Shown: positions 1,990 to 59,850 of the stretch, piece by piece
How the letters are laid out: the number at the start of each line of letters is the position of its first letter
Numbering within the stretch: position 1 is the first letter of the stretch
Virus record (IMG/VR): IMGVR_UViG_3300045988_107608
Span: 16,948-80,947 of that record
Source of the DNA: a virus
Reading direction: 5' to 3' (one strand)
Length of the DNA: 64,000 nt
Program-made: the position numbers and the translations under genes
The notes under the pieces: model-generated
Databases searched by the model: none
What the model saw: the letters and a program-made list of their open reading frames with translations, nothing else
What the model was told of the DNA's origin: nothing

Positions 1990-2522
1990 GTATGAGAAGG
2001 AGATTTTTTAATGCTGCGGATAATTTCGTGGGAGGATGTTATAATAAGTTATCCAATGAAGATATAAAAAGGCTTGGAGGAAAAAGACCTTATGTATGTC
2101 AGTTTAATAAAATTCATATACATATAGGACCTGTATTAAAAGATCATGATTCTGATGTTAGTTACATAATGTTTAATAGTAATTGGAATTATGGTGGTTA
2201 TGAATCTATGGTTTATAATCATAGCAATAATGGTATTTTTATATTAGGTGAAAACAAAATTGGTAACATAGAAGATCATATACAAGATCTAACATATTGG
2301 TACGAATATGATCCAAGCATTAATGAAAATTATTGTTATTTTTATTATGAGGCTAATAACAGCGGAAATGCTATCAAGTTGAATGGTGAGTTTGGTGATA
2401 CCAGTACTGTTTTCAACATTCCCAGCTTGGAAGTCACCACTCTTCGTGATGGCAGTTTGAGTTTTCCGGAGATTTATATAGAAGGAATTTGGGATCCGTC
2501 ATTGTATAAGTCGGTTTTATAA
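1983..2522 (+). CDS. hypothetical protein
   Basis: 179-aa ORF overlapping the upstream stop (coupled). Asn/Tyr-rich. Confidence 0.45.
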   Translation: MLSMRRRFFNAADNFVGGCYNKLSNEDIKRLGGKRPYVCQFNKIHIHIGPVLKDHDSDVSYIMFNSNWNYGGYESMVYNHSNNGIFILGENKIGNIEDHIQDLTYWYEYDPSINENYCYFYYEANNSGNAIKLNGEFGDTSTVFNIPSLEVTTLRDGSLSFPEIYIEGIWDPSLYKSVL

Positions 2523-2548
2523 TTAACTTTGCAAAAAAGTTAATTACA

Positions 2549-4807
2549 ATGGGTGTCAAATGTCAGATAGAAAAAAAGGAAAATGAAATAAAACGGGTTA
2601 AGGCTCCTAACGGGGAGCCTTCCGTTCTTTACGAAAGTGCTTTAAAAGTATTAGGAAACAGCGAGCGGGCTCTTCAGGTATGGGCTAAGGCTTACACTCC
2701 TGGTTTTTTGTCGTATTACGGTCATTGGAATAACCCGGCTCCAGGAGAGATGTTTAATACCGATCCCAATGGTGAACCTCTTTTAGAAGACGTGCTGTCG
2801 TATATGAAGCGTCAGACTTATTTTGCTGATCCTTTAACGGCTCAGGATGTTAAGGATGTAAGGGATTTCCTTTTGTCTACTCATTATTTTTTCAATGCGT
2901 CTTCATTGTCTAATGCTATTCTCTTCGATTTTTATGTAGATGGCAGTTTGATACTGAATGAGCAGAAATTAAGGAGATCCGGTTTGTATGATGAAACAGA
3001 AATAAGTCGTATTTTATCCGATCCTTCTGTTTTAAACGAGGTTTCGACTTCCATGAGAAAGTTAATAGATTCTTCTATTAACGAACATGATAGGGAAAAA
3101 GATAATTATTTTATGTCTATTGACTATCAGTATGGTCCTATTGTTTACAAGGAGGGAGTGTTTAACCAATTTGGTAAAAAAGTACCATATAATCCTTCTG
3201 AGCTTTATTATGCTATGCGTAAAACAGTAGCCGGCATAAAAAACTTTTCTGAATTTTCATCTGCTTTTGAATCGTTGAGAAATTCATATCCTGAACTGGT
3301 TGAGAAATTCGTTTCTGATAAAGAATTTGCCGAATCTATGTTTGATGAGTTCTCATCTACGAATAAGATTCCGGTAATAAACATAGAAGGGGATGATGTG
3401 GTGGAAGGCAAGAGAAGATCTTTGTCTAAGCTACAAGATCTTTCTTATTACAATTCCGGCAAAATAGAGTTCCTAAGAGCTCGTATATCAGCTTATTTAC
3501 ATAGGGCTAATGCCGACACCGAATCCGATTTAAGAAGCATGATATGGGATATAGAAGAGGCTTGTACGTGGTTTGGCATAGATATAATAGGGACATCGGA
3601 AACTTATGATGGCACAGAAGAATCTTTGAATAAGATAGATAATTTGATGCTGGATCTTGATATTTATGTGGCCAGGCATAATGATGTAAATTATGCTCCA
3701 ACGCTGGCATCTTCTATAGATGATGTTCTTGGTGATAGTACAGACTATTATTTTGGATTATTGCCGGAGTATATGGATAATTTGAATATCGTTTATTCTG
3801 AATCCGATATAGACCCAGTAGAGGCATTTGAGAAACATTCATTGCTTAAGGTAGGAGATAATCTATATCAAAGGATCAGCAAAGATGATCTTAACGAGAT
3901 GTATCAAATATCAACAGTATTAGCCAAGCACAACCTAACTCATTTTTCTACTAAAATATATCCTGAATCTTGTTTTAAGAACGGCGTTTTGGATAAAGAG
4001 AAAGTACGGAACGTAGATAATAATACGCTCATGGCTTCCATTAAAAAATACGTCAGATCGTTCATGGATTCTCAGAACACAGAGGACATGATAATGACCA
4101 GGATGGTGTTTGGGCACCCTGCGGTACTTGACGTTCCTTACGTGGATGTGGATCGGGAGTATAGTCGATACATGAACAAAAAACAAGATAGCGAAAACCC
4201 ATTATCCTTATTCGATTTATACCAATCTTACCTTGACAACAAACTCCATAAAACAAAATTATATGATAATGCCTATAAGTATCTTGACTTCAAACCTGGT
4301 CCATCTTTGGGTCTTATTTCTGATGATCCTGATATTTTGAAATCAATAGAATTATCTTTATCTGGAAAAGACAGGTTGATGTTGTTTGATTATAGCATGA
4401 CCAGTACCGACCCTTCTTTATCAGAATTGTTTTATTTGGAGAGGTATGACCCTTCGTATGCTGGGAATGATTTTGAACACTATTTTTACACCAGGCACCC
4501 GTATTTGTTAAAAGAAAAATCGGGTTCTAATATCGTAGAGCAAGATGGTGTTATAACAGCAGAAGGTATTTATGATAATTTTATAAGAGTAGGTAATAAG
4601 ATATGGTCTAAAGTAAGCGAGAGTAGTTCCGGCTCTATCTACCAAAATCTGACAGGAACCGAATCGGAGGTGAAATACGATTCTACTCAGAAGGTAAAGA
4701 CGGTAGAAACCGATTACGCTCCATACCAAAACAGATCTGGCTTGACGCAAGATATGATCGTAAGCAAGTCTGAATTGGATGATCTTAACAAATTAGAATG
4801 CAAATAA
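2549..4807 (+). CDS. hypothetical large protein (752 aa), probable virion/morphogenesis module
   Basis: Long intact ORF in the plus-strand block. No recognised motif. Confidence 0.6.
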   Translation: MGVKCQIEKKENEIKRVKAPNGEPSVLYESALKVLGNSERALQVWAKAYTPGFLSYYGHWNNPAPGEMFNTDPNGEPLLEDVLSYMKRQTYFADPLTAQDVKDVRDFLLSTHYFFNASSLSNAILFDFYVDGSLILNEQKLRRSGLYDETEISRILSDPSVLNEVSTSMRKLIDSSINEHDREKDNYFMSIDYQYGPIVYKEGVFNQFGKKVPYNPSELYYAMRKTVAGIKNFSEFSSAFESLRNSYPELVEKFVSDKEFAESMFDEFSSTNKIPVINIEGDDVVEGKRRSLSKLQDLSYYNSGKIEFLRARISAYLHRANADTESDLRSMIWDIEEACTWFGIDIIGTSETYDGTEESLNKIDNLMLDLDIYVARHNDVNYAPTLASSIDDVLGDSTDYYFGLLPEYMDNLNIVYSESDIDPVEAFEKHSLLKVGDNLYQRISKDDLNEMYQISTVLAKHNLTHFSTKIYPESCFKNGVLDKEKVRNVDNNTLMASIKKYVRSFMDSQNTEDMIMTRMVFGHPAVLDVPYVDVDREYSRYMNKKQDSENPLSLFDLYQSYLDNKLHKTKLYDNAYKYLDFKPGPSLGLISDDPDILKSIELSLSGKDRLMLFDYSMTSTDPSLSELFYLERYDPSYAGNDFEHYFYTRHPYLLKEKSGSNIVEQDGVITAEGIYDNFIRVGNKIWSKVSESSSGSIYQNLTGTESEVKYDSTQKVKTVETDYAPYQNRSGLTQDMIVSKSELDDLNKLECK

Positions 4808-5490: not shown

Positions 5491-6573
5491 TTGTTCCACC
5501 CTGCAATCATGATCTTTGTTACGTGCTTCATGCACGTATGTTTAACAATTAAATACTATAAAATTATGGGTGGTGATAAAATCGTCCTTTTAGATGGAGC
5601 CGGGGCTAACGGTGGTGGTGCAGCCACTAACGGTCTTCTTTCAATGATTCCCGGCATGTTTGCTAATTTGATAGGTGGTAATAAAATGGATCCGAATCTG
5701 GTGGCGGCTTTGATGAACGGTCGTAACAACCAGGACGGTTTCGGTGGGGCTAACGGTTGGTGGCTCTGGATAATTGTTTTGTTCTGGCTGTGGGGTGGAC
5801 GCGGCTTCGGTAACGGTTTTGGAAATGGCGGTGATTGTTGTGCCAATGGTTTGCCGGCTCAGTTGAATAACGATTACGGTCGTGAACTTTTGATGCAGGC
5901 AATTCAAGGTAATCGTAGCGCCATAGATCAGATTGCTTCTGCTTTGAACTGTTCTACTACTCAACTTCAGAACGCTATCTGCAACGTACAGGGTGCTATT
6001 GATAAAGTAGCTGGTCAGGTAGGTATGACTTCTCAGGCTGTTATCAACGCAGTTCAACAACAAGGTTGTGAAATAGGAAATCAAATCAGCTCTTGCTGCT
6101 GCAATCTGAGTTCGTTGATCAATCAAAGCACTTGCCAGACTCAGGGAATGATTACTCAGCAAGGTTTTGATAACCAGCTTCGCACGTTGGAACAAACCAA
6201 TGTCTTGCAGAACGGTCTCAACCAAGGTCTGGCTAACAATCGTGAGCAAGCTACAAGCCAATTCAATATCTTGTCTGCGAAACTTGACGCCCAAACCGTT
6301 ATGATCAACGACAAATTCTGTCAGTTGGAAATGAGGGAAATGCAGAACACTATTGCTCAACTTCGTGAAGAAAAAGCGGCTTTGACAGCTTCGGCATTAT
6401 CTCAGCAACAAACCCAGAATATCGTTGGTCAATTACGCCCGACGGCCGTCCCGGCCTACCCCTCTTGTTCTCCTTACCAGGCTTATACTTGGGGACAGGT
6501 ATTCGGAGGAGGTTGCTGTAATAACGGATGCGGATGTAACAACGGATGTTGCAATAACAACGCTGCTGTCTGA
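5491..6573 (+). CDS. Gly/Gln/Cys-rich protein with a Trp-rich hydrophobic segment (true start may be Met at ~5566)
   Basis: 360-aa ORF with GGxGxG repeats, WWLWIIVLFWLW segment, Q/N-rich coiled region and a C-terminal CCNNGCGCNNGCC cluster. Confidence 0.5.
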   Translation: MFHPAIMIFVTCFMHVCLTIKYYKIMGGDKIVLLDGAGANGGGAATNGLLSMIPGMFANLIGGNKMDPNLVAALMNGRNNQDGFGGANGWWLWIIVLFWLWGGRGFGNGFGNGGDCCANGLPAQLNNDYGRELLMQAIQGNRSAIDQIASALNCSTTQLQNAICNVQGAIDKVAGQVGMTSQAVINAVQQQGCEIGNQISSCCCNLSSLINQSTCQTQGMITQQGFDNQLRTLEQTNVLQNGLNQGLANNREQATSQFNILSAKLDAQTVMINDKFCQLEMREMQNTIAQLREEKAALTASALSQQQTQNIVGQLRPTAVPAYPSCSPYQAYTWGQVFGGGCCNNGCGCNNGCCNNNAAV

Positions 6574-16200: not shown

Positions 16201-19200
16201 GATCTATACAGAGCAGATGGAAAAGTGGGATGCTGAAAATTCGGAACTGGAATTTAGCGAAAGTTATGCCACAAGAATGGAATCCATATACAAAAAGGCT
16301 GAAGAAGAATTAGGGTATCCGGTTTCTCAAACAACCAAAGAATATCTTAATGCCCTATCCCGGCAAAAACGGATATTGAGGCAGCCTTTTATTGATAGCG
16401 GTGGTAATTTTGATGAGGTTGCCTATTTTAAAAGCAGCAATTACGAAGAAGAAGGACTGCTTCGTAAACAACGTAAGGAAGCAGCTTCAGAATACATATA
16501 TGTAGGAACCAGGAGAGTGGAAAAAACCGGCGACCAACTTAAGATGGCCAAAGAAATACAAGCTATAAATGAAGTTTGGAGAAAGGAATCAAATAATGCC
16601 ACTAATGCCGTATCAGAATCGTTTTTGCAAAAATTAAGAACGATTCAGAGCGAGTCTGGAGGAGAAGCTGCGCTGAAGACACTTATGTTGGGAGGTCACC
16701 TGTCATTCAACGATCGGTTTTGGAATGATGTAGAATCAGAACAGTCGGCACGTACCGAATCAAATAACAAGGCTTCGTATCTTAAAATGGCGCATGATAT
16801 CATTAGTTCTACGACAAGTGATAGAGATGCGACTGACGTGGATTCTATTGTGAAAGATATAGAAAAAAATAAGGCTATTATCAAGGAAATAATCGGAAAC
16901 AATCGCGATGTGGCTGATATCGGAGAAATTAACGAAGCGACATTTACCTCATCCGAAAGAGATGCTTTTAGGGCCGCATCTGAAGCTATTGAAGCCGATT
17001 ACACTATTTTGATAGATTATGCTAAGATGGTGGGTCTTGAAGATATTGATAAGTACCTTACTAAAAGCAGTAAGGCTGAAAACGAAGTAAATCAGTCTTA
17101 TTTAAATGCTCTTGCTGACTCCAAGGAAGTGGAATGGAAGTTCGTACAACGTCATACTACGGCGAAGAAAGCAAAAAGGATTCAGGCTTTAAGGGATAAG
17201 CTGTTTAAGGCTGCTGATAACCGATATCTGTTTACCGTATCTGAAACCAACTACCTGTCAGAAAAGCTTGGTATAAGCAAAGAATTAGACGGTAGAGATT
17301 TCAGGAATGCTGTTAATGCTAAGATGGCCAGCTTATTTTTAAATAATACAAGAGAAGAGGGCGTAGAAGAAGCTAATGCTATTGTTAATGAATTTGCCAG
17401 AAGCCAGGTTTTTTCGTACTATAAACGCATGGCGCCTACCGGATATGCAGCTATGATCGACAAAATCGGTCGAGGTGAGATAGATGTGGCGCAAATGGTT
17501 AAGGACGTACAAAACGGTACATCCACCCAAGATTATGGCATGGACATATCGTACTTGTCTTTCGACCCTGCAAGGGCATGGGTGGCTGAATCTGAAGCCG
17601 AAAATAGCGGTCGTAATCCTGATTATGTAAAAGATCATGGGTATGGTCATCGAATGCCTAAGAAAAGCCTGTATCGTGACGAATCGTATTTCAATGACTT
17701 TGGTATCAAGTATGATGCTGACGGTAATGAGGTTGCTACTAAAAACGTAGAGCAGTGGAATATGATTCAAAAACTCAAGGAAATAAAAAGACAATCCCTT
17801 GATCTATACAAAGAGCAGAGCCCGAACCTGTATGCTATTCCACAGATATCCAAACAAGATATAGAACGTGTAGAAGGATTGGGTATTAACTTCAAAAATA
17901 CGGTTCGTAATTTTGTATCAGATCTGTGCCTGGACAGAGTAGACGATTCTCTATATGGTAAGACCAGGCAAGGAGAAGTGTATGATCCAGAAGACAGGCT
18001 TAGGTCTATACCTAAATACTACATATATGAATTGGAGAACCAAGATGATGTATCTCACGATTTTGGCTACTCTTATTCGATGCTTATGATGCAATCATCG
18101 TTATACAACGAAAAGCAGAAGTCTATAGAGCTTGCCCAAGGACTGGAGCAGATGTTACTAAATAAACAATTTGAAGGTGGTAAAAAGGCTGAAGCAACCC
18201 AAGCATATCAGATGTTCAGGGACTTCTTCAACGATCATTATTATGGCATTAGGATGAACACCAAAAAACTTACGGTGAACATCGGAGGATATACGGTAGA
18301 CCTTACAAGAATTATGATGGCTGTTGAAAGATTTATGTCGGTTATGAACTTGGCACTGTCTCCGTTTGTGGCAGCTACCGGCGCCCTGACAGGCCATATC
18401 AACCTCATCATGGAATCAGCCGTAGGACAGTATATAAGCAAAGATTCCCTTAAATACGCATCGGCTGAGTTTTCCCGTCTTGCGCCATCTTGTATAGCAG
18501 AAACCGGAGACATAGATAGGAAAAGCAAATTATATGTCATAGGTGAGAGAATGGGGATATTCAATATCCGAAATCGTATGTATGGTGCCGGATACAATAG
18601 AGCGGCCAGGACCTTAATGCGTTCGCCTATGTATGCTTTTATGGAAATCCTGAACTACCCTCTTGATCCGCAGGTTATGATTGCTACTATGGACAATGTT
18701 CGTTATTACAAAGGCCGGTTCTACACGTTCCAAGATTTCAAGATGGAAAAAGAACGCAATAAAGAACAGAGTACCATAAAAAGAGAATGGAACGCATTAA
18801 AAGATCGTACTTTATGGAGTATGGTAGACGTCGTGGATGGAAAGGTGGTTGTAAAGCCGGGATCGGGTGTTACTGTTGAGGAAGTTGAAACCCAGATGGC
18901 TATAACCAGGAATCAAGTCCGTAGCTTGTCGCAGATATGTAACGGATCTTTGAATGAAGAAAACCGAACTGCCGCATCGCGCAACTGGATAGCCAGGTTC
19001 ATGACCGCCCACCGAGGATGGTTGGTGCTGGCGGCTCAACGTCTGTGGAAAAGACGTGGCTTCAATTTCCAGACAATGCAAGAAGAGGAAGGGTTGTCAA
19101 TTACGTTAAAGAATATGATAGCCAAAACATTTAGCTTAGCTTCCGAGTCTGGTATGAAAAACATCATAGATGCCTGGAACGAAAATAAAGACAATATGAA

Positions 19201-20528: not shown

Positions 20529-21266
20529 ATGAGAAGAAGATTTGAAAATAATGCTAAACTATATGAGTATAAGATAGTTAGCAATTGTATAGGGGGGGGG
20601 GTAATCGTAGAAGGAAAGAAAGTAGGCACCATTCCACAGGGCGGGCAATTTATCTTTCTGTCTAAAAAAGAACGGCTGGATTCCATAAGTGTCCAAGGCG
20701 GTGTTCCAATGGAAGATAGGCAAGAGATCGATAGTCAGGTTGATACGACAGAGGAATTGCTTGAACAGGATTCGGTGGTTCTTGCTATTGCTTTAACAAC
20801 CTCTCCTTATTATGGATTTAGAGTAAGTGTGATAGCACCTGATGAGTTTACGCTAAGAACAACCAATAGGATTAATAGAACCTTTTTAATAACAAGCTTT
20901 ACTCCACCTGCTGCTATATACGGTGTAAACTTTGGTGATCCTATTGTCCTTAATTATGATAGTTACCAATATAAGATGCCAGATCTTGTAATTGATGGAC
21001 CTCATGATAGAATAGTTAGGGCAGATCCTAATCTTACTTGGGTTGTAAGATGTACAGACGCCGACTTTAAACCTTTGCCATATCCAGAATCATGGTCTGG
21101 CCAAGGTTTAAATTCTATGTTCTTATCAGATATGAAACGTCTTGCTCCTGGTGATCATCATGTATCATATACAGCTTATATTAATTTGGACTTGATAAAT
21201 GATGGCGGAAGTAAAGTTCATACTGAATATCTGATATTAGAAGAAACACTTAATTTTACGATATGA
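20529..21266 (+). CDS. hypothetical protein with a G10 tract at codons 22-25 (candidate tail or receptor-binding protein)
   Basis: 245-aa ORF with N-terminus MRRRFE. The homopolymer gggggggggg sits at 20592-20601. Confidence 0.5.
   Translation: MRRRFENNAKLYEYKIVSNCIGGGVIVEGKKVGTIPQGGQFIFLSKKERLDSISVQGGVPMEDRQEIDSQVDTTEELLEQDSVVLAIALTTSPYYGFRVSVIAPDEFTLRTTNRINRTFLITSFTPPAAIYGVNFGDPIVLNYDSYQYKMPDLVIDGPHDRIVRADPNLTWVVRCTDADFKPLPYPESWSGQGLNSMFLSDMKRLAPGDHHVSYTAYINLDLINDGGSKVHTEYLILEETLNFTI
20592..20601 (+). repeat. G10 homopolymeric tract inside a coding region
   Basis: Ten consecutive G encoding GGG(V), in an otherwise AT-rich gene. Confidence 0.9.
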
Positions 21267-21311
21267 CAACAATCCCCAACCGTACGCCTATTGTATGGTT
21301 GGGGATTGTTG
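21267..21311. terminator. bidirectional terminator hairpin between convergent modules
   Basis: caacaatccccaacc / ggttggggattgttg perfect 15-bp stem with a 15-nt loop, between the plus gene ending at 21266 and the minus gene ending at 21356. Confidence 0.55.
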
Positions 21312-21355
21312 TAGTTACCATCTTTTCTTGTATAAGCAGAACATGAAATAAGTTT

Positions 21356-21844
21356 CTAAGCATTAACTTCATGACCTCCCCTATCTGTGAAAACTAAACC
21401 AATACCTTCTATGATATGTCCTACTACAGGAGCTTTGTCAAATTCCTCCTTCGTAGCCCAAGTAGCATTATCAGGCATAAGATCCTTGAATGCGTCCGAA
21501 ACATCACCTTGACACCAGCAGTTATTTGATGTAACAATGCCTTTCCCTTCGATATTGATATACATTTTTCTTCCACCACATCCAAGGCTGTTCCATCCGC
21601 TCGGTACGTTTTCCACCATAGGCTTAAGCACCCAGCTTTCACCGTCTATCCTAACCCATCCTGGATCGTCTTTGTGCTTGTCGTACAAGTTTTGCCAAAA
21701 AGAGCATTCGTAGCACCACCCCCTGTCTTCCATGACAGTTCTTATCTCACACCTTTCAAATCCATCTGCATCCATCGTGTGCGGAGAATGAGGCTGGTGA
21801 GGAGTGCCACATTTTGGACATATGAGTTTTAAATTCTTTTCCAT
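21356..21844 (-). CDS. hypothetical Cys-rich protein
   Basis: 162-aa ORF with CPKCG and CYEC motifs. Confidence 0.45.
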   Translation of the reverse strand: MEKNLKLICPKCGTPHQPHSPHTMDADGFERCEIRTVMEDRGWCYECSFWQNLYDKHKDDPGWVRIDGESWVLKPMVENVPSGWNSLGCGGRKMYINIEGKGIVTSNNCWCQGDVSDAFKDLMPDNATWATKEEFDKAPVVGHIIEGIGLVFTDRGGHEVNA

Positions 21845-21845
21845 A

Positions 21846-22082
21846 TTATTTAACTTTTACGATCTTAATAGAATCTCCGATATTGTATTCCCCTTGGTAT
21901 CCAACGAATTTTATAAGCCTATTATTATAAAATATTGAAATTCTTTCGTCTTTACCATAATACATTATACATCCATCTTCTAAAGGACGTAAATCATATA
22001 TAACCCATCCGTTATTAACCTGACTATCATCATGCGAACATGATGATAACACAAGTGCCATCAATAAAATAAAATACCTCAT
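21846..22082 (-). CDS. putative small lipoprotein
   Basis: MRYFILLMALVLSSC: signal peptide with an LSSC lipobox-like motif. Confidence 0.45.
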   Translation of the reverse strand: MRYFILLMALVLSSCSHDDSQVNNGWVIYDLRPLEDGCIMYYGKDERISIFYNNRLIKFVGYQGEYNIGDSIKIVKVK

Positions 22083-29613: not shown

Positions 29614-30633
29614 TCATCGTTTTATCTTTTTAGACGGATCCCAATCCGAAGAGAAAGGGCATTCGTTTTTGTTATGTAATCCAAAGTCACAATAGTAACA
29701 CAGTGCTGACGGGCAGGGTAGCTTGTTTTGCGGAACAGGCTGGCTTAGGGTGGCACGCCGCTTGCTATACCTGGCTCCTTCTGCTCCCTGGATGTATGCC
29801 TGAAATGTTTTTACACTATTATCTTCAAAATCATACATTTTAGACAAAGTGTCATTTAGCATCTCTATAGATTTTGTTTTACGTTCCTCATCCACCTTAA
29901 CCTTTTGGTATTGTCTGGTCCTGGTAAAGAAATAGATGTTCATATCTGGCAGAACTCCACCATATTTTCTATAGATGTAAAACGAATATATAGGATGCTG
30001 TAAATTCGTTTCCAACTTCTTAGAATCAAAAACCTTATTACCTGATTTCCAATCTATGACATAATGGTGAACTACGTTCTTGCTTTTTATAGCCAGATGA
30101 AGGTCTACCGATCCTACTATGTACACATGAGTATGAATTACTCCATTTATGTTAACAGGCTTAGGAAGACGGTACGGCAGCACAAAATCTTCTTCGACTC
30201 CAACTATAGCGCCGTGTCTGATAAGTTTCTCGCAGGGATTAAGATCACTATCAGCTATCATAAACCTATTGCCGTCTTTTTTGAACAGATCCACAATCCA
30301 AGCAAGAAGCTCTCCAGATTGCTTCATGGCTATCATCATATTTTCCGGTGATTGCCAAGGTATGTCTTCTTGGTAAGCATAGTAACTTATAGCTTCCCCC
30401 AGGTCTTTGCCAGAAGGCTGTCTTCCGTTCTTGAAGAAGTATTCCAGTGTCTTATGAATAACCGTACCATAAGACGTAGCTTCTTGTTTTTCCGTAGACC
30501 TTTTGCCCTCCACGTAAGTTTTATACCATTTCATTGGACAAGTAAGAAACGTATCTATCTGGGAATAAGATATGGCAAGACGTTTCACACCATTAAACTC
30601 CTTATATAGCAAATGCGTTTCCGGGACCATCAT
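29614..30633 (-). CDS. Cas4/RecB-like PD-(D/E)XK exonuclease with a C-terminal Cys cluster
   Basis: IDWKSG (D-x-K motif), an N-terminal Cys (FLTCPMKW) and C-terminal CPSALCYYCDFGLHNKNEC, typical of Fe-S Cas4/AddB-type nucleases. Confidence 0.55.
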   Translation of the reverse strand: MMVPETHLLYKEFNGVKRLAISYSQIDTFLTCPMKWYKTYVEGKRSTEKQEATSYGTVIHKTLEYFFKNGRQPSGKDLGEAISYYAYQEDIPWQSPENMMIAMKQSGELLAWIVDLFKKDGNRFMIADSDLNPCEKLIRHGAIVGVEEDFVLPYRLPKPVNINGVIHTHVYIVGSVDLHLAIKSKNVVHHYVIDWKSGNKVFDSKKLETNLQHPIYSFYIYRKYGGVLPDMNIYFFTRTRQYQKVKVDEERKTKSIEMLNDTLSKMYDFEDNSVKTFQAYIQGAEGARYSKRRATLSQPVPQNKLPCPSALCYYCDFGLHNKNECPFSSDWDPSKKIKR

Positions 30634-30989
30634 AAGTCATTGTCTTTAAATCCTTCCGGGTAATATACGACATACTTCTTACCGTCTTCTGGTGTCATGG
30701 CAAACTGCATGTAGTTATTACGATTACGATGCTTGCCATCCAATCCTCGTTTCCAATACAGGATACCGTCTATATCCACATAAGATCGGCCGCGGTCGGC
30801 TCTAACCACGTCCGTGTGTAGCAGATACCCGTCGGAAGACACAATCCACACTTTATCCCCTTTGCTTAAATAAGATATTCTTTTTCTTACAACAACCCTT
30901 TTCTTATTATCCAATACAAATTCCTCGTCAGTCATACTCTTCATCCTCCTCTTCTTCTGTTTCAAAATCAATTCCATAATACTGATCAT
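30630..30989 (-). CDS. hypothetical protein (real start probably at the internal MKSM/MTDEEF)
   Basis: 119-aa ORF. Confidence 0.4.
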   Translation of the reverse strand: MISIMELILKQKKRRMKSMTDEEFVLDNKKRVVVRKRISYLSKGDKVWIVSSDGYLLHTDVVRADRGRSYVDIDGILYWKRGLDGKHRNRNNYMQFAMTPEDGKKYVVYYPEGFKDNDL

Positions 30990-31065
30990 AATGCTTGGTC
31001 AGTTCTTCTGGTTCTAAATCTTGTCCAAAATCCATGTTAAAAATATCGTAATTAGTAAAGCACTG

Positions 31066-31081
31066 TTCCTGCCGGCAGGAA
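31066..31081. promoter_or_regulatory. perfect 16-bp palindrome TTCCTGCCGGCAGGAA in an intergenic region
   Basis: Self-complementary 16-mer between the SPFH operon end and the next minus-strand gene. Candidate operator. Confidence 0.35.
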
Positions 31082-31142
31082 ATCTATGAATGCTGCTTTT
31101 ATTTCTTCAATTAGGCCCAAGTGTAACCCTGGGCCATTGTAT

Positions 31143-32843
31143 TTATTTTTTGTCATCTCCTTTTAGCTTCTTTAAAGTATCTGCAATCGGAAGCTGATCA
31201 ATGACTCCCAATGCCGGAGCGACGGTCTTAACAACATTGTTAAGGAAATTACCGGTACTGTTCTGACCGCCGTCAAATACCGTGATATTTCCGAGGTTAA
31301 TGTGCTCAAATGCCTTAACCTGTTCTCCGGCAATTTCTTTCCACTGATTAACCATCTTGTACTGGATGGCGATCTGAGGATTGGATTCTGCTGCTTCCAC
31401 CATAGCCTTAAATCCGTCGGCTTCTGCCATCAACGACTTTTTCTTACCTTCGGCTTCCGCTTCCAGCTTCATCTGAATAGCTTTTGCTTCCGCCTCTGCT
31501 TTTGCCAAATGTGCTGCTGCTTCAGCATCGGCCCGGCGTTTGATCTTCTCGGCCTCGGCATCAGCTTGCAACATAGCCTCCTGCTTCTGAATTTCAGCCG
31601 GCACAATCTTTTCAGCTTTAAGCGCAGCTTGAACCTTCTTAGCTTTAGCTTCTTCCACTTCTTTATCAGCAAGCTCTTTTGCCGTTTTCACAGCCGCTTC
31701 CGATTTAACTTTCTCTTCTCCGGCTTTCTTTTCTGATTGAGCTTTGATAACCTGCAATTCTGATTCTGATACAGCAACCTCTTTCTGGGCATTGTTGTAG
31801 CCTACAGAAGCATTTTTCTCAGCCTCAGCTTTCTTAATCTGAGCTTCAGAGTCTTGTATTGCTATAGCTGCTTGTTTGTCAGCTTCAGCTTTATTCTTTC
31901 CAACTTCTTCCATTCTTTCGGCTTCAGCTTTGTTTACTTCAAGTTCCGCCTTAGATCTTGCAATCGCTGATTCCTTGTCAGCCAAAGTCTTTGCTATAGC
32001 CGCAGCCCTATCTCTATCGGCTTGAGCTACACCGATCTGTTTTTCTTTATCGGTTAAAGCCAAAGCTACTTCTTTTTCTTTCTTTGTTTCAGCTACTACC
32101 GTTTCTTTTTCTTTTTCAGTATAGGCAATTTGAATCTCTTGCTCTTTTTGGGTATTAGCTACAGCCGTTTCTTTTTCCTTCTGTTGTACAGCAATCTTAA
32201 TAGCACCCAGCTTTTCCTGTTCTTCGATATTAGCCTGTGCTTCGTTCAGAGCCTTGCTTTCAGCCTCTTTACCAAGATTCATGATGTAGCCGGCTTCATC
32301 TCTGATGTCACTGATGTTAATGTTCAAAAGATAAAGACCCAATTTATTAAGTTCGTTATCAATGTTTTTTCTTGCCTTATCCAAAAACTCATCCCTATCA
32401 GAATTAAGTTTTTCGATTGTCATTTCGGCAATAATCAAACGCATCTGACCGTAAACGATGTCTGTAATAAGATTTTCAGTAGATTCGGTATCCATCCCCA
32501 AAAGTCTTTCTGCTGCATTTTGCATGATTTCAGGATTTGTACTGATAGCTACTGTAATAGTTGTAGGCACATCTACTCTAATATTCTGAGATGACAAAGC
32601 ACCGGTAAGCCTACAATCTATTTGCATAGGCTCCATAGACAAAACATCATAGCTTTGAATAATAGGCAAGACAAATGCCGCTCCACCATGATATAATTTT
32701 GCCGACTTCTTTTCCCCACCTGTCTTACCGTAAACGACCAAGACCTGATTAGGCTTACATCTACGATACCTTGATAAGACTCCGATGATTGTCAAAATAA
32801 TCACTACAGCTAAGATGGCTGACACGTACATAATTGTTGTCAT
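31143..32843 (-). CDS. SPFH/band-7 (flotillin-like) membrane protein
   Basis: N-terminal TM helix, SPFH core (QVLVVYGKTGG...VPTTITVAIS...) and a long KEKE/Ala-rich coiled coil, as in FloT/YqiK. Confidence 0.7.
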   Translation of the reverse strand: MTTIMYVSAILAVVIILTIIGVLSRYRRCKPNQVLVVYGKTGGEKKSAKLYHGGAAFVLPIIQSYDVLSMEPMQIDCRLTGALSSQNIRVDVPTTITVAISTNPEIMQNAAERLLGMDTESTENLITDIVYGQMRLIIAEMTIEKLNSDRDEFLDKARKNIDNELNKLGLYLLNINISDIRDEAGYIMNLGKEAESKALNEAQANIEEQEKLGAIKIAVQQKEKETAVANTQKEQEIQIAYTEKEKETVVAETKKEKEVALALTDKEKQIGVAQADRDRAAAIAKTLADKESAIARSKAELEVNKAEAERMEEVGKNKAEADKQAAIAIQDSEAQIKKAEAEKNASVGYNNAQKEVAVSESELQVIKAQSEKKAGEEKVKSEAAVKTAKELADKEVEEAKAKKVQAALKAEKIVPAEIQKQEAMLQADAEAEKIKRRADAEAAAHLAKAEAEAKAIQMKLEAEAEGKKKSLMAEADGFKAMVEAAESNPQIAIQYKMVNQWKEIAGEQVKAFEHINLGNITVFDGGQNSTGNFLNNVVKTVAPALGVIDQLPIADTLKKLKGDDKK

Positions 32844-32874
32844 AACTTTTAAAATTTAATTGTTGATAAAAAAA

Positions 32875-33369
32875 TTAGATAATTAATTCTCCTTCTTCGT
32901 ATTTTATATTCACCTTGTCACCGTTTTTGTAAGTTTTTCCAGACAAGCATCTTACTCTCATTTGCTCCTGTCTTCCATTTTTCGAAATATTTACCATATA
33001 ATGATTCTTCCCTGATCTAAACACTATCTCCACCTCTCTGCCATTTAAATCTTCCGGACATTCGTACACCATTTCTTGCTTTAACTTAAGAAGTAACTTA
33101 TATACGTAAAACAAAACGATAAAGAAAAACGACCCTATCACAACCCCTACTAAATGGGAACCCGAAAAGTAGGTAGTCCAGCTATATCCAAGAATAAAAT
33201 GTGTTATGCCCTTGAATGATATGATGTCCGACAAAGACATACTTAAATCAGAAGCATCATCAATATCAATATCCGTATCCAGATCAGATCCTAATATCGA
33301 CAACAAAAACTGTATAACAAAAGCAAATGACGCTATTAAAGCCATGCATAAAATTATGTCACTTCCCAT
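32875..33369 (-). CDS. NfeD-like membrane protein (SPFH partner)
   Basis: N-terminal TM helices plus a C-terminal short beta-barrel-like segment (GDKVNIKYEEGELII), immediately upstream of and overlapping the SPFH gene. Confidence 0.45.
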   Translation of the reverse strand: MGSDIILCMALIASFAFVIQFLLSILGSDLDTDIDIDDASDLSMSLSDIISFKGITHFILGYSWTTYFSGSHLVGVVIGSFFFIVLFYVYKLLLKLKQEMVYECPEDLNGREVEIVFRSGKNHYMVNISKNGRQEQMRVRCLSGKTYKNGDKVNIKYEEGELII

Positions 33370-33610
33370 ATCCTTCTGTTATTATTTTGTAAACAAGATC
33401 AGTCATATCTTTGATGGTCTCCATATCATAATCATTAATAACAATATTGAATTTTTGTTCCACCATCACTTCCAGTTCAATTTGATCGATAGAATCTAAT
33501 CCAAGTTCTTTAAACGTCACATCTTCTTCATGAACTATATCTATTTCCGAATTAAGAAACTGAGTAATAATTATATCCTCTATTATCTTTCTGATTCTTA
33601 CTTTTTCCAT
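33359..33610 (-). CDS. acpP: acyl carrier protein
   Basis: ELGLDSIDQIELEVMVEQKFNI matches the ACP phosphopantetheine-attachment motif (DSL/DSI Ser). 83 aa. Confidence 0.6.
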   Translation of the reverse strand: MEKVRIRKIIEDIIITQFLNSEIDIVHEEDVTFKELGLDSIDQIELEVMVEQKFNIVINDYDMETIKDMTDLVYKIITEGYGK

Positions 33611-34311
33611 TGCTTTCTAATTTTGTTAAATAAATACGTTTTTATGTTTTTCAATCGCTCTTTGTCTGTTTCAGAACTTCCGGTAAACAAATAATCCGGA
33701 TTGCCTTTAGCCGGCGGCGTAGGCAATTTAGATACGGCAAACAACCAATCCATTTCCTTATTCTTCTTAGACTCCAAATAAGGCTCGGTAGCGATCTTAA
33801 ATTTTTCAGCTATTAAGTCAAAGAGCTTTGAATTTTTAAGGTTCATATGGACCGAAAAGGCCTGAGAAGGCGGTTTCCATATGAAGTTACATAAGCTCAT
33901 TGTATAATCTCCTGACTCTGCTATATAAGATTCCGTTACCTGAAGTATGACCTCTTTCTTGAATGAGGTGTTACCCATAAACCAACACAACCTGGATTCC
34001 GCTTCTTTTCTGCTGACACCTATGTCTTTTGAATACGATTCGTACATTCCTATCATAATCTTCAACGTTTCCAGAACCTCGTCTGTCATCTCCGGTGTCT
34101 CTATATAATTCACAAAAGACGTTCCTTTGTTGGTCAATCTCATCACGCCTGATTTTAATTTCTCAACCAGGCCAAGCTCTATATACCTCCCAGCATCTTT
34201 TTCCAGCATGGCTTCGATCATAACCGTATCCTTCTGTCTTATAGCAAGAAGATTAGCCAGATCATTAGGAGTCATGTCTGATGCTGCAAGTTGTCTGAAA
34301 TTGATGTACAT
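33598..34311 (-). CDS. hypothetical protein
   Basis: 237-aa ORF overlapping the ACP start. Confidence 0.45.
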   Translation of the reverse strand: MYINFRQLAASDMTPNDLANLLAIRQKDTVMIEAMLEKDAGRYIELGLVEKLKSGVMRLTNKGTSFVNYIETPEMTDEVLETLKIMIGMYESYSKDIGVSRKEAESRLCWFMGNTSFKKEVILQVTESYIAESGDYTMSLCNFIWKPPSQAFSVHMNLKNSKLFDLIAEKFKIATEPYLESKKNKEMDWLFAVSKLPTPPAKGNPDYLFTGSSETDKERLKNIKTYLFNKIRKQWKK

Positions 34312-34313
34312 GC

Positions 34314-34523
34314 CTAATCAGCTTTAATAAAAATAACATCCTTACCATCCTCCCTCTCTACGTGATTACACGGGCCTGCGACTACATCTACCGACCCGCA
34401 TGTAATGTGGTCATTAAATATACATCCTTCACATCCTAAGTCTGGCTCTGGAGCATCCACACATTTTAATCTCACAAGTCCGGCATCAAACACTTCTCCT
34501 ACTTTAAATTCCTTCTTTTCCAT
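34314..34523 (-). CDS. small Cys-rich protein
   Basis: CEGC...C...C pattern. Confidence 0.35.
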   Translation of the reverse strand: MEKKEFKVGEVFDAGLVRLKCVDAPEPDLGCEGCIFNDHITCGSVDVVAGPCNHVEREDGKDVIFIKAD

Positions 34524-34538: not shown

Positions 34539-35141
34539 TTAACTGTTGTACCCTTCTTTGATAATCGAATTTCTACCGGTAGATACCGACTGTCGAAGAT
34601 CGTCATGTACAGAATCTACCGTAGAATACTTGTTTCTGGTTGTAAAAATCACTTCCAGCATCTCCTTGTAATCACCTAAAGCTACTTCATATCTCGGATC
34701 TACTTTGGCTTTTCTTTCGGCCTCGGCATTACTCTTAGCCAGCTCTCGGTCAAGAAGATCTTCTTTGATTCGGTCAGCAATCATATCAAGTTCTTTTTTT
34801 ATGACTTCTCCTGCTGCCCGAAGTTGACCTTCTACGTCGCCAAGCTGATCTTGGACGGTTCCTATTTCTTTCTTTAGGCGATCGTATTCGTTAATCATAC
34901 CCATATCACCTGCATAGCCGGAAAAGTCCTTGATTATTCTGGTTCCTTCTTTAAGGAGTTCAATAACTCGTCTTTTACGTTCTCTGCTTATTAAAGACGG
35001 AAGACGATAATTCATATCCGCCACCGCCTTATCATGTATGGAGTTGATTAAAAACATCTCTCTTTCATCCCCTGCAAACTCAGTAAGAACCAAAAGGAAC
35101 TTACTTATCAGGTATTCGTTTTCTTCTACTGTTAGTCTCAT
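34539..35141 (-). CDS. hypothetical protein
   Basis: 200-aa ORF. Confidence 0.45.
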   Translation of the reverse strand: MRLTVEENEYLISKFLLVLTEFAGDEREMFLINSIHDKAVADMNYRLPSLISRERKRRVIELLKEGTRIIKDFSGYAGDMGMINEYDRLKKEIGTVQDQLGDVEGQLRAAGEVIKKELDMIADRIKEDLLDRELAKSNAEAERKAKVDPRYEVALGDYKEMLEVIFTTRNKYSTVDSVHDDLRQSVSTGRNSIIKEGYNS

Positions 35142-59626: not shown

Positions 59627-59850
59627 TTTCTGATTTTGTTTTATTTTTTTCTTTGTTTTTTCTATCTTCTATAGAAGATGATAATAACATTATCTTTTCT
59701 ATGTTACTTTTTGACTGTAAAAAAGAATCGCATTTCATTACTACTACCACCTTCTTAAGTTCCCCATTATCGTATAGCGATACACGCATCATGTTTTGCA
59801 CCTCGTCCACTATCAGACCTGGAGTAGTCTTAGCCATTTTGCGTAGCTTA

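Follow-up and report, generated by a model that had tools for sequence, protein, structure and literature searches.

Gene content of the locus

The locus considered here lies on the minus strand of a 64,000-nucleotide stretch of viral DNA (IMG/VR record IMGVR_UViG_3300045988_107608, positions 16,948 to 80,947), which is referred to below as the window and numbered from its first letter, and it comprises genes for an acyl carrier protein (ACP), an NfeD-like membrane protein and a flotillin, preceded by a gene of the phage replication module. A first-pass annotation of the sequence had read these four genes as one operon in which a carrier protein is coupled to an SPFH-NfeD membrane module. The evidence assembled here makes it probable that the locus instead holds a host-derived two-gene cassette, encoding the NfeD-like protein and the flotillin, in a variable slot of the replication module, next to a separate and older ACP gene. 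The four co-directional open reading frames (ORFs) were confirmed by an ORF check and are, in the direction of reading:

33598-34311, minus strand: gene for a 237-amino-acid (aa) winged-helix protein, a conserved replication-module gene with a 13-nucleotide (nt) overlap with the start of the ACP gene
33359-33610, minus strand: ACP homologue of 83 aa, pI 4.3, matching Pfam PP-binding and phrog_5934, with the Ser40 codon at 33491-33493
32875-33369, minus strand: NfeD-like membrane protein of 164 aa, in which an acidic DxDxDxD loop and three predicted transmembrane (TM) helices precede a C-terminal OB-type beta barrel
31143-32843, minus strand: flotillin of 566 aa, matching Pfam Band_7 and Flot

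The description of adjacent genes as overlapping is correct for two junctions, namely that of the 237-aa and ACP genes (13 nt) and that of the ACP and 164-aa genes (11 nt), but not for the NfeD-like and flotillin genes, which are separated by a spacer of 31 nt.

The phage origin of the window is borne out by comparison with phage csAssE-Sib from the human gut (OR575929.1, 151 kb), to which it is 95% identical over 6 kb and, over the remainder, collinear at 92-95% identity. The csAssE-Sib record bears crAss-type structural annotations, for example muzzle and ring proteins, and it already labels the genes of the locus as 'flotillin family protein', 'transmembrane protein', 'acyl carrier protein' and 'hypothetical protein'. 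The source is thus a crAss-like human-gut phage of roughly 150 kb, and a common one, its lineage being abundant in gut metagenomes with single 90% clusters of 2,400-3,000 member sequences. The module itself is undescribed in the literature searched on csAssE-Sib, on crAss/Crassvirales flotillin or SPFH proteins and on phage ACPs. By composition and strand bias, the first ~21 kb of the window form a plus-strand block and the stretch at ~22-64 kb a long minus-strand one; the locus sits in the latter, which is the replication block, the structural genes being on the other strand. Both GC skew and AT skew flip sign at ~21000-22000, where the plus-strand structural block ends and the minus-strand replication/early block starts.

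A phage-encoded flotillin

The assignment of the 566-aa protein to the SPFH proteins holds, and the protein is a real flotillin. It passes the Pfam cut-offs of both Band_7 (PF01145; 89.7 bits against a cut-off of 23.6, E 3e-25, residues 30-211) and Flot (PF15975; 38.6 bits against 27, E 1.3e-9, residues 450-559), and it matches the solved chains of human flotillin-2 (E 6e-23) and flotillin-1 (E 6e-18). The following parts can be distinguished:

residues 5-24, minus strand: N-terminal hydrophobic anchor, read off the translation, followed by RYRRCK and kept in bacterial homologues
32211-32756 (residues 30-211), minus strand: SPFH/Band 7 domain (Pfam PF01145)
31497-32210 (approximately residues 212-449), minus strand: coiled coil rich in Glu, Lys and Ala, seen directly in the sequence and making up ~40% of the protein
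31167-31496 (residues 450-559), minus strand: C-terminal Flot domain (Pfam PF15975)

In alignment, the SPFH stretch is near-identical in the phage and its closest bacterial homologues. The FloT equivalog model (NCBIfam NF058507) gives 147 bits against a cut-off of 700, and the protein is, as far as such scores can place it, a member of the flotillin family rather than an equivalog of B. subtilis FloT.

Flotillins are rare among phages. No PHROG family matches the protein, and tblastn matched it in 9 of 50,697 deposited phage records, near-full-length hits being confined to csAssE-Sib and Vibrio phage KIT04 (Demerecviridae). The 'flotillin family protein' of KIT04 is likewise a phage-encoded SPFH/flotillin, but is only 28% identical to the csAssE-type flotillin; there is no annotated ACP near it, its upstream hypothetical ORFs not having been compared with the NfeD-like protein or the ACP. 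It was probably acquired independently from a different host lineage.

Dome-like cages are known for flotillin, HflK/C and QmcA. The phage protein has SPFH homology to human flotillin-1/flotillin-2 (PDB 9bq2, 9l3g) and E. coli QmcA (8z5g), at E values from 6e-23 to 4e-4, and shares with these solved assemblies the succession of SPFH domain, coiled coil and C-terminal domain; because of this homology and common layout, it may be expected to assemble into an oligomeric membrane cage. Unlike the human flotillin complex, the phage flotillin possesses a bacterial-type N-terminal membrane anchor.

An NfeD-like partner recognized by fold and gene order

The naming of the 164-aa protein as NfeD-like stands with regard to fold, architecture and conserved gene order, but not with regard to sequence. 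No NfeD match was obtained for it in Pfam, PHROG, NCBIfam or PDB, and PF01957, the NfeD C-terminal domain, gave nothing at E <= 0.1; among 52 members of its family just one matches this model (E 6e-5). PDB searches with profiles of 6 and 52 family sequences returned noise only and no solved NfeD chain, and an exhaustive HMMER search expanded the family to 406 representatives without a strong bridge to NfeD. One family member that looked like a 'long NfeD' (P0295) was discarded as a fusion with a DPPIV_N protein.

On the other hand, the AlphaFold2 (AF2) model has the short NfeD architecture of N-terminal TM helices followed by a soluble C-domain, with helices at residues 2-25, 52-69 and 72-101 and then a beta domain at 112-163. 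The C-terminal part is a five-stranded OB barrel like that of solved NfeD C-domains (residues 110-164, window 32878-33042), whose best structural matches are the C-domains of YuaF (2k14), PH1510-C (3wwv) and 3cp0, and the protein is encoded directly next to an SPFH gene, 31 nt upstream of the flotillin. The term 'NfeD-like' is accordingly to be understood at the level of modelled fold and synteny only.

The acidic DxDxDxD loop of the phage protein spans residues 28-46. Across the 52 family sequences, residues 28-61 comprise a near-invariant acidic DxDxD loop and then S-F-K-G-x-x-H-F, which opens the second TM helix, with D31, D33, S51, K53, G54, H57, F58 and G61 near-invariant. We know of no description of this signature for NfeD, and it could be a metal- or partner-binding site.

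Probable descent of the pair from a Bacteroidales operon

The nearest non-phage homologues of the flotillin are 50-62% identical to it and lie on bacterial contigs among housekeeping genes, each with a 165-aa gene directly upstream of the flotillin gene and no ACP. In the two closest of these metagenomic flotillins (P0158 and P0169, at loci L086 and L088) part of the SPFH domain is duplicated, so that DNIDTELRKFGLYLMNINISDIRDAANYIVNLGKEAESKA occurs twice, which may be real or an assembly artefact. A survey of bacteria with one genome per species returned 80 loci, all of them from Bacteroidales and spanning Bacteroides, Parabacteroides, Phocaeicola, Prevotella, Leyella and Xylanibacter, with 62-67% identity by tblastn. 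A homologue of the 164-aa protein is encoded 19-27 nt upstream of the flotillin in 78 of them, the other two being cut short on that side, and the pairing of SPFH and NfeD genes as a conserved bacterial module, as put forward in the first-pass annotation, is thereby corroborated. A homologue of the ACP or of the 237-aa protein was found within 5 kb in none of the 80 loci.

When ungapped columns are counted, the identity of the phage flotillin to each of the Bacteroidales copies is 66-70%, compared with 72-99% among those copies themselves, and the NfeD-like partner is 33-42% identical to the Bacteroidales proteins, compared with 41-94% among them. The joint equidistance of both phage proteins, together with the conserved operon, points to a pair captured together from a Bacteroidales-type operon; the identities fit a capture that was single, joint and not very recent, and suggest that the phage pair has since diverged faster than the cellular copies. 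Bacteroidales are also the likely hosts. Base composition is uninformative as to a recent transfer (the GC content at third codon positions, GC3, of the flotillin gene is 0.37, near the window GC of 0.375), because the GC content of this gene has equilibrated.

Compared with the Bacteroidales chromosomal operon (an NfeD-like protein of ~165 aa, then a flotillin of ~525-540 aa), the phage has the same two genes in the same order and a similarly short spacer (31 nt against 19-27 nt), with 62-70% identity in the flotillin and 33-42% in the partner. It differs in that the coiled coil is ~30-40 residues longer and variable in length, and in that the pair is placed in a replication module, is an equidistant, fast-evolving offshoot and has a small tail-anchored ORF appended to it. 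NfeD-flotillin operons are also found as yuaF-floT in B. subtilis and yqiJ-yqiK in E. coli, and the archaeal stomatin PH1511 pairs with the NfeD protein PH1510. As in these systems, the SPFH gene directly follows that of an NfeD-type membrane protein with an OB domain at its C-terminus; the phage pair differs in that the flotillin falls below the FloT cut-off, the partner is missed by the Pfam NfeD model and there is no ClpP-type protease domain. The locus is, in essence, an ordinary bacterial NfeD/flotillin operon of the yuaF-floT and yqiJ-yqiK type, carried as a rare host-derived auxiliary module.

A divergent acyl carrier protein

The 83-aa protein is a genuine carrier-protein homologue with its serine in the canonical place, as had been proposed. 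It scores 32.7 bits against Pfam PF00550 (PP-binding; cut-off 20.8) and matches phrog_5934, 'acyl carrier protein', at E 3e-9. Residues 6-77 align with solved ACPs with Ser40 of LGLDSID in register, GLDSID pairing with the GFDSID, GADSLD and GLDSLD of 1vku, 3gzl and 7ar9 and also aligning with E. coli AcpP. Ser40 is the putative phosphopantetheine site, and the 72-residue alignment argues for a four-helix bundle. The protein is not matched as a housekeeping AcpP equivalog, the best NCBIfam ACP models giving 26-33 bits against cut-offs of 65-106, and it is very divergent: among the 50,697 phage records, tblastn matched it in csAssE-Sib only. It resembles the phage ACPs of PHROG 5934 ('moron, auxiliary metabolic gene and host takeover'), which are likewise small acidic PP-binding proteins with a DS[ILV]D motif; unlike them it falls below every NCBIfam ACP cut-off and its serine is lost in a sister clade. 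Its gene is poorer in GC than its neighbours (GC 0.29 and GC3 0.26, against a GC of 0.34-0.42), and truncated ACP ORFs occur in 5-6 of 84 contigs.

In the sister clade, which is described below, all six loci (L172, L176-L179 and L255, at ~5675-5940) encode an ACP-like protein with the motif GFDDLD, in which Asp occupies the position of the attachment Ser. The carrier-protein fold is there apparently kept without a prosthetic group, and retention of this small acidic protein would therefore not always require one. In this regard, no acyltransferase, acyl-ACP synthetase or phosphopantetheinyl transferase (PPTase) is annotated or was detected in the genome; the search for a PPTase, made with phmmer over the window and the rest of csAssE-Sib using E. 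coli AcpS and B. subtilis Sfp as queries, was of low sensitivity and gave nothing below E 0.8. Since no phage PPTase was found, phosphopantetheinylation would depend on the host AcpS, and since no acyl-handling enzyme is annotated or was detected in the genome either, a lipid-metabolic role for the ACP is left without a supporting partner.

An accessory-gene slot in the replication module

The upstream gene, which the first-pass annotation had left as hypothetical, encodes a protein that begins with a MarR-like winged helix and is entirely helical in its C-terminal part; this gene belongs to the replication module and does not encode a lipid enzyme. Its size would fit an Sfp-type PPTase or an acyl enzyme, both of which are ruled out by these domains. 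The family has no Pfam match beyond HTH_45, found in 2 of 44 members.

Two further features delimit the flotillin gene downstream:

31052-31156, minus strand: small ORF, 34 aa here, overlapping the flotillin stop by 14 nt and containing a 16-bp palindrome
30630-30989, minus strand: conserved 119-aa phage gene at the downstream edge of the NfeD/flotillin slot, with a ratio of nonsynonymous to synonymous polymorphism (pN/pS) of 0.088

The order DnaB, 200-aa gene, small ORF, 237-aa gene, ACP, NfeD-like protein, flotillin, small ORF, 119-aa gene and PD-(D/E)XK nuclease is common to all 84 close viral contigs, and is identical in a second clade whose flotillin is 83% identical. More distant loci were compared through relatives in the 237-aa gene family; a concatenated query of the 237-aa protein and the ACP recovered that family well, but its ACP part gave only oddly called fusion ORFs, and ACP relatives were taken from the loci themselves. 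A sister clade at 60% identity has, after the 237-aa gene, the ACP-like gene, a C5 DNA methylase, a homologue of the 119-aa gene (ORFs of 98-100 aa after the methylase), two radical-SAM genes and the nuclease, without NfeD or flotillin. The methylase ORF of one of these loci (L178) is 625 aa long, not ~280 aa as in the others. In one relative (52% identity) the 237-aa gene leads directly to the nuclease, with neither ACP nor cargo, and other relatives carry unrelated small ORFs in between. The flanks are constant across clades, with DnaB and the 200-aa and 237-aa genes on one side and the 119-aa and PD-(D/E)XK genes on the other, while the cargo between them differs, and the interval from the 237-aa gene to the nuclease is therefore a hotspot for accessory genes. 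From this distribution the ACP would be the older occupant of the slot, common to three clades, and the NfeD-like/flotillin cassette a later one, common to two.

The proposed functional unit of four genes coupling an ACP to SPFH-NfeD is thus not upheld: related phages keep the ACP without the pair or lack both, and none of the 80 Bacteroidales loci has an ACP. Co-occurrence of ACP, NfeD and SPFH genes was not seen, among the 80 bacterial loci and the sister phages, beyond a single lineage. Judged from gene order, the ACP is best described as a separate accessory gene travelling with the 237-aa gene upstream, and not as a component of the flotillin unit.

Selection on the genes of the locus

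Selection was assessed by pairwise Nei-Gojobori estimates over the population, with 69 alleles for the flotillin. The pN/pS values are 0.044 for the flotillin, 0.072 for the NfeD-like gene, 0.053 for the 237-aa gene, 0.050 for DnaB and 0.058 for the PD-(D/E)XK nuclease, compared with 0.39 for the ACP. Purifying selection on the flotillin/NfeD-like pair is strong, matching that on the helicase and nuclease, and the low pN/pS of the pair therefore indicates that it is in use by the phage. The ACP is far more loosely held than its neighbours.

Possible function of the cassette and alternative explanations

In the scenario considered probable here, an ancestor of the phage clade would have taken the NfeD-like and flotillin genes as a unit from a Bacteroidales chromosomal operon, and the cassette would have been inserted into the accessory slot bounded by the 237-aa winged-helix gene and the PD-(D/E)XK nuclease. 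By homology, the flotillin would be made during infection alongside the replication genes, anchored in the host cytoplasmic membrane via its N-terminal hydrophobic segment, and oligomerised through its SPFH, coiled-coil and Flot domains into dome-like cages. NfeD OB domains bind the C-terminal part of their SPFH partner, and the OB domain of the NfeD-like protein may bind the flotillin in the same way as in stomatin/NfeD pairs. In this manner the infected cell would gain a phage-made membrane-microdomain scaffold, or have its own replaced by one. Such a scaffold would most plausibly serve to keep the envelope intact and organised through a long productive infection; the candidate benefits, which are speculative, include membrane maintenance, scaffolding of membrane-associated phage processes, exclusion and counter-defence.

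Several observations weigh against this scenario. The coiled coil of the flotillin is a hotspot of in-frame deletions in the phage population (11, 33, 85, ~99 and ~156 residues, all within residues 305-460), and C-terminally truncated forms are well represented (P0161, 425 aa, 348 members; P0133, 507 aa, 172 members). The truncated forms are either real alleles or assembly errors and, unless they are errors, full-length flotillin is dispensable in some genomes. The attachment Ser of the ACP is kept in every intact allele of the flotillin-carrying clade despite many other substitutions. Because the ACP and NfeD-like genes overlap by 11 nt, they are probably co-transcribed and translationally coupled, and a functional link between them in this clade is possible. 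Finally, both cage formation and NfeD-flotillin binding are read from homology. With regard to the population variants, the deletions fall between KAEAE-type repeats, and the SPFH and Flot domains are near-invariant (P0114, P0122, P0147, P0154, P0164, P0133 and P0161).

An explanation that shares the same origin, and to which we attach a small though real probability, is that the pair is a conflict module, in which the membrane scaffold blocks superinfecting phages or neutralises membrane-attacking abortive-infection effectors. The presence of a DNA methylase, a typical anti-restriction cargo, in the slot of the sister clade is consistent with it, as are the strong purifying selection on the pair, the variable coiled-coil length, the attached polymorphic small TM ORF with its tail anchor, and the rarity of flotillin in phages (9 of 50,697 records, no PHROG family). 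It is opposed by the lack of diversifying selection on the SPFH or Flot domains, and PADLOC gave no meaningful defence-model match for any of the four proteins: nothing for the flotillin, the NfeD-like protein or the ACP, and no more than a weak similarity to LmuC (E 0.002, 16 bits) for the 237-aa protein. A more specific proposal, somewhat less probable again, is that the flotillin/NfeD cage acts as a counter-defence or lysis-timing device, which would seal or scaffold the inner membrane, so that infected Bacteroidales cells remain alive and energised while a crAss-type infection runs on for long without looking lytic, or would blunt abortive-infection effectors that disrupt membranes, with the length of the coiled coil tuning the size of the cage. 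If true, it would give a viral SPFH scaffold a defined role for the first time.

It is doubtful that the ACP and the MarR-like 237-aa protein form a regulatory pair with flotillin expression merely downstream, loosely like FabT, a MarR-family repressor that has acyl-ACP as its ligand. The two genes overlap and are adjacent in three clades; against this, FabT is one among dozens of equivalent MarR matches, several relatives have the 237-aa gene without an ACP, and the forms with Asp for Ser cannot carry an acyl chain.

Still less probable is the original proposal of one operon, in which acylated ACP would feed or modify lipids or proteins at flotillin microdomains and so remodel host lipids or membranes. 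The tight packing of the co-directional genes with their 13-nt and 11-nt overlaps, the order that stays constant in 84 of 84 contigs of the clade and also in the second clade, whose flotillin is 83% identical, and the Ser in all intact ACP alleles of the clade speak for it. However, the adjacency of ACP, NfeD and flotillin traces to a single lineage, no nearby ACP accompanies any of the 80 bacterial NfeD-like/flotillin loci, the sister-clade ACP occurs without the pair and with Asp for Ser, constraint on the ACP (pN/pS 0.39) is far weaker than on its neighbours, no acyltransferase, acyl-ACP synthetase or PPTase was found in the genome, and the upstream gene encodes a winged-helix protein. The carrier-protein-coupled flotillin system, which was the unusual part of the first-pass annotation, is therefore unsupported.

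That the 566-aa protein is a diverged virion coiled-coil protein, as its long Glu/Lys/Ala-rich coiled coil (~40% of the protein) might suggest and as the first-pass annotation had allowed, or that host DNA was mis-assembled into a phage contig, is very improbable: the protein is 66-70% identical to chromosomal flotillins and nearly matches them throughout its SPFH and Flot domains, its gene is part of the replication block and not on the strand of the structural genes, and phage genes flank it on both sides in >150 independent viral contigs and a complete GenBank genome.

Understood as a host-derived cassette, the locus is a rare example of a host membrane scaffold taken over by a phage, in a widespread gut lineage and under strong purifying selection, and the flotillin pair may help to explain how Bacteroidales cells stay productive when infected by crAss-like phages. 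In addition, the interval from the winged-helix gene to the PD-(D/E)XK nuclease is marked out in these genomes as a hotspot for accessory genes.

The small ORF, the palindrome and neighbouring genes

Across 83 loci the small ORF downstream of the flotillin is 50 aa long in 41 and 34 aa long in 25. The 50-aa version, annotated in csAssE-Sib as a hypothetical protein, has a C-terminal TM helix (MTKNKYNGPRLHLGLIEE...LLITIFLTWILDKI), which is lost in the window and in 25 other loci through a 10-nt deletion that shortens the ORF to 34 aa; the clade at 83% flotillin identity has a 52-aa counterpart. This ORF may belong to the cassette as a third component that can be dispensed with.

The perfect 16-bp palindrome reported just downstream of the flotillin, TTCCTGCCGGCAGGAA, is present at 31066-31081, but it lies inside the small ORF, occurs at chance frequency (2 perfect 16-mer palindromes in the window, against 1.4 +/- 1.3 in shuffles) and is not conserved, its symmetry being broken in aligned close relatives by single substitutions without compensation. 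A role as terminator or operator was ruled out on these grounds, there being moreover no T-run and no call from a terminator scan. The only other perfect 16-bp palindrome in the window is ATCTTCTATAGAAGAT at 59664-59679.

Between DnaB and the 237-aa gene, a 200-aa coiled-coil protein (34539-35141, minus strand) for which no family match was found is 99-100% identical across 81 loci, with a pN/pS of 0.009 at a pS of 0.15, far tighter than DnaB or the nuclease. The adjoining 69-aa Cys-rich ORF (34314-34523, minus strand), which neighbours the 237-aa gene, varies greatly (identity 55-100%, pN/pS 0.32) and is replaced in the sister clade by an unrelated 121-aa ORF, marking a second small variable slot. 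Downstream of the nuclease, the SNF2/DEAD helicase gene of some related phages carries intein/homing-endonuclease insertions (L173, 8014-9837; L175, 6142-8571), which match Pfam Hom_end_hint, Intein_splicing and LAGLIDADG.

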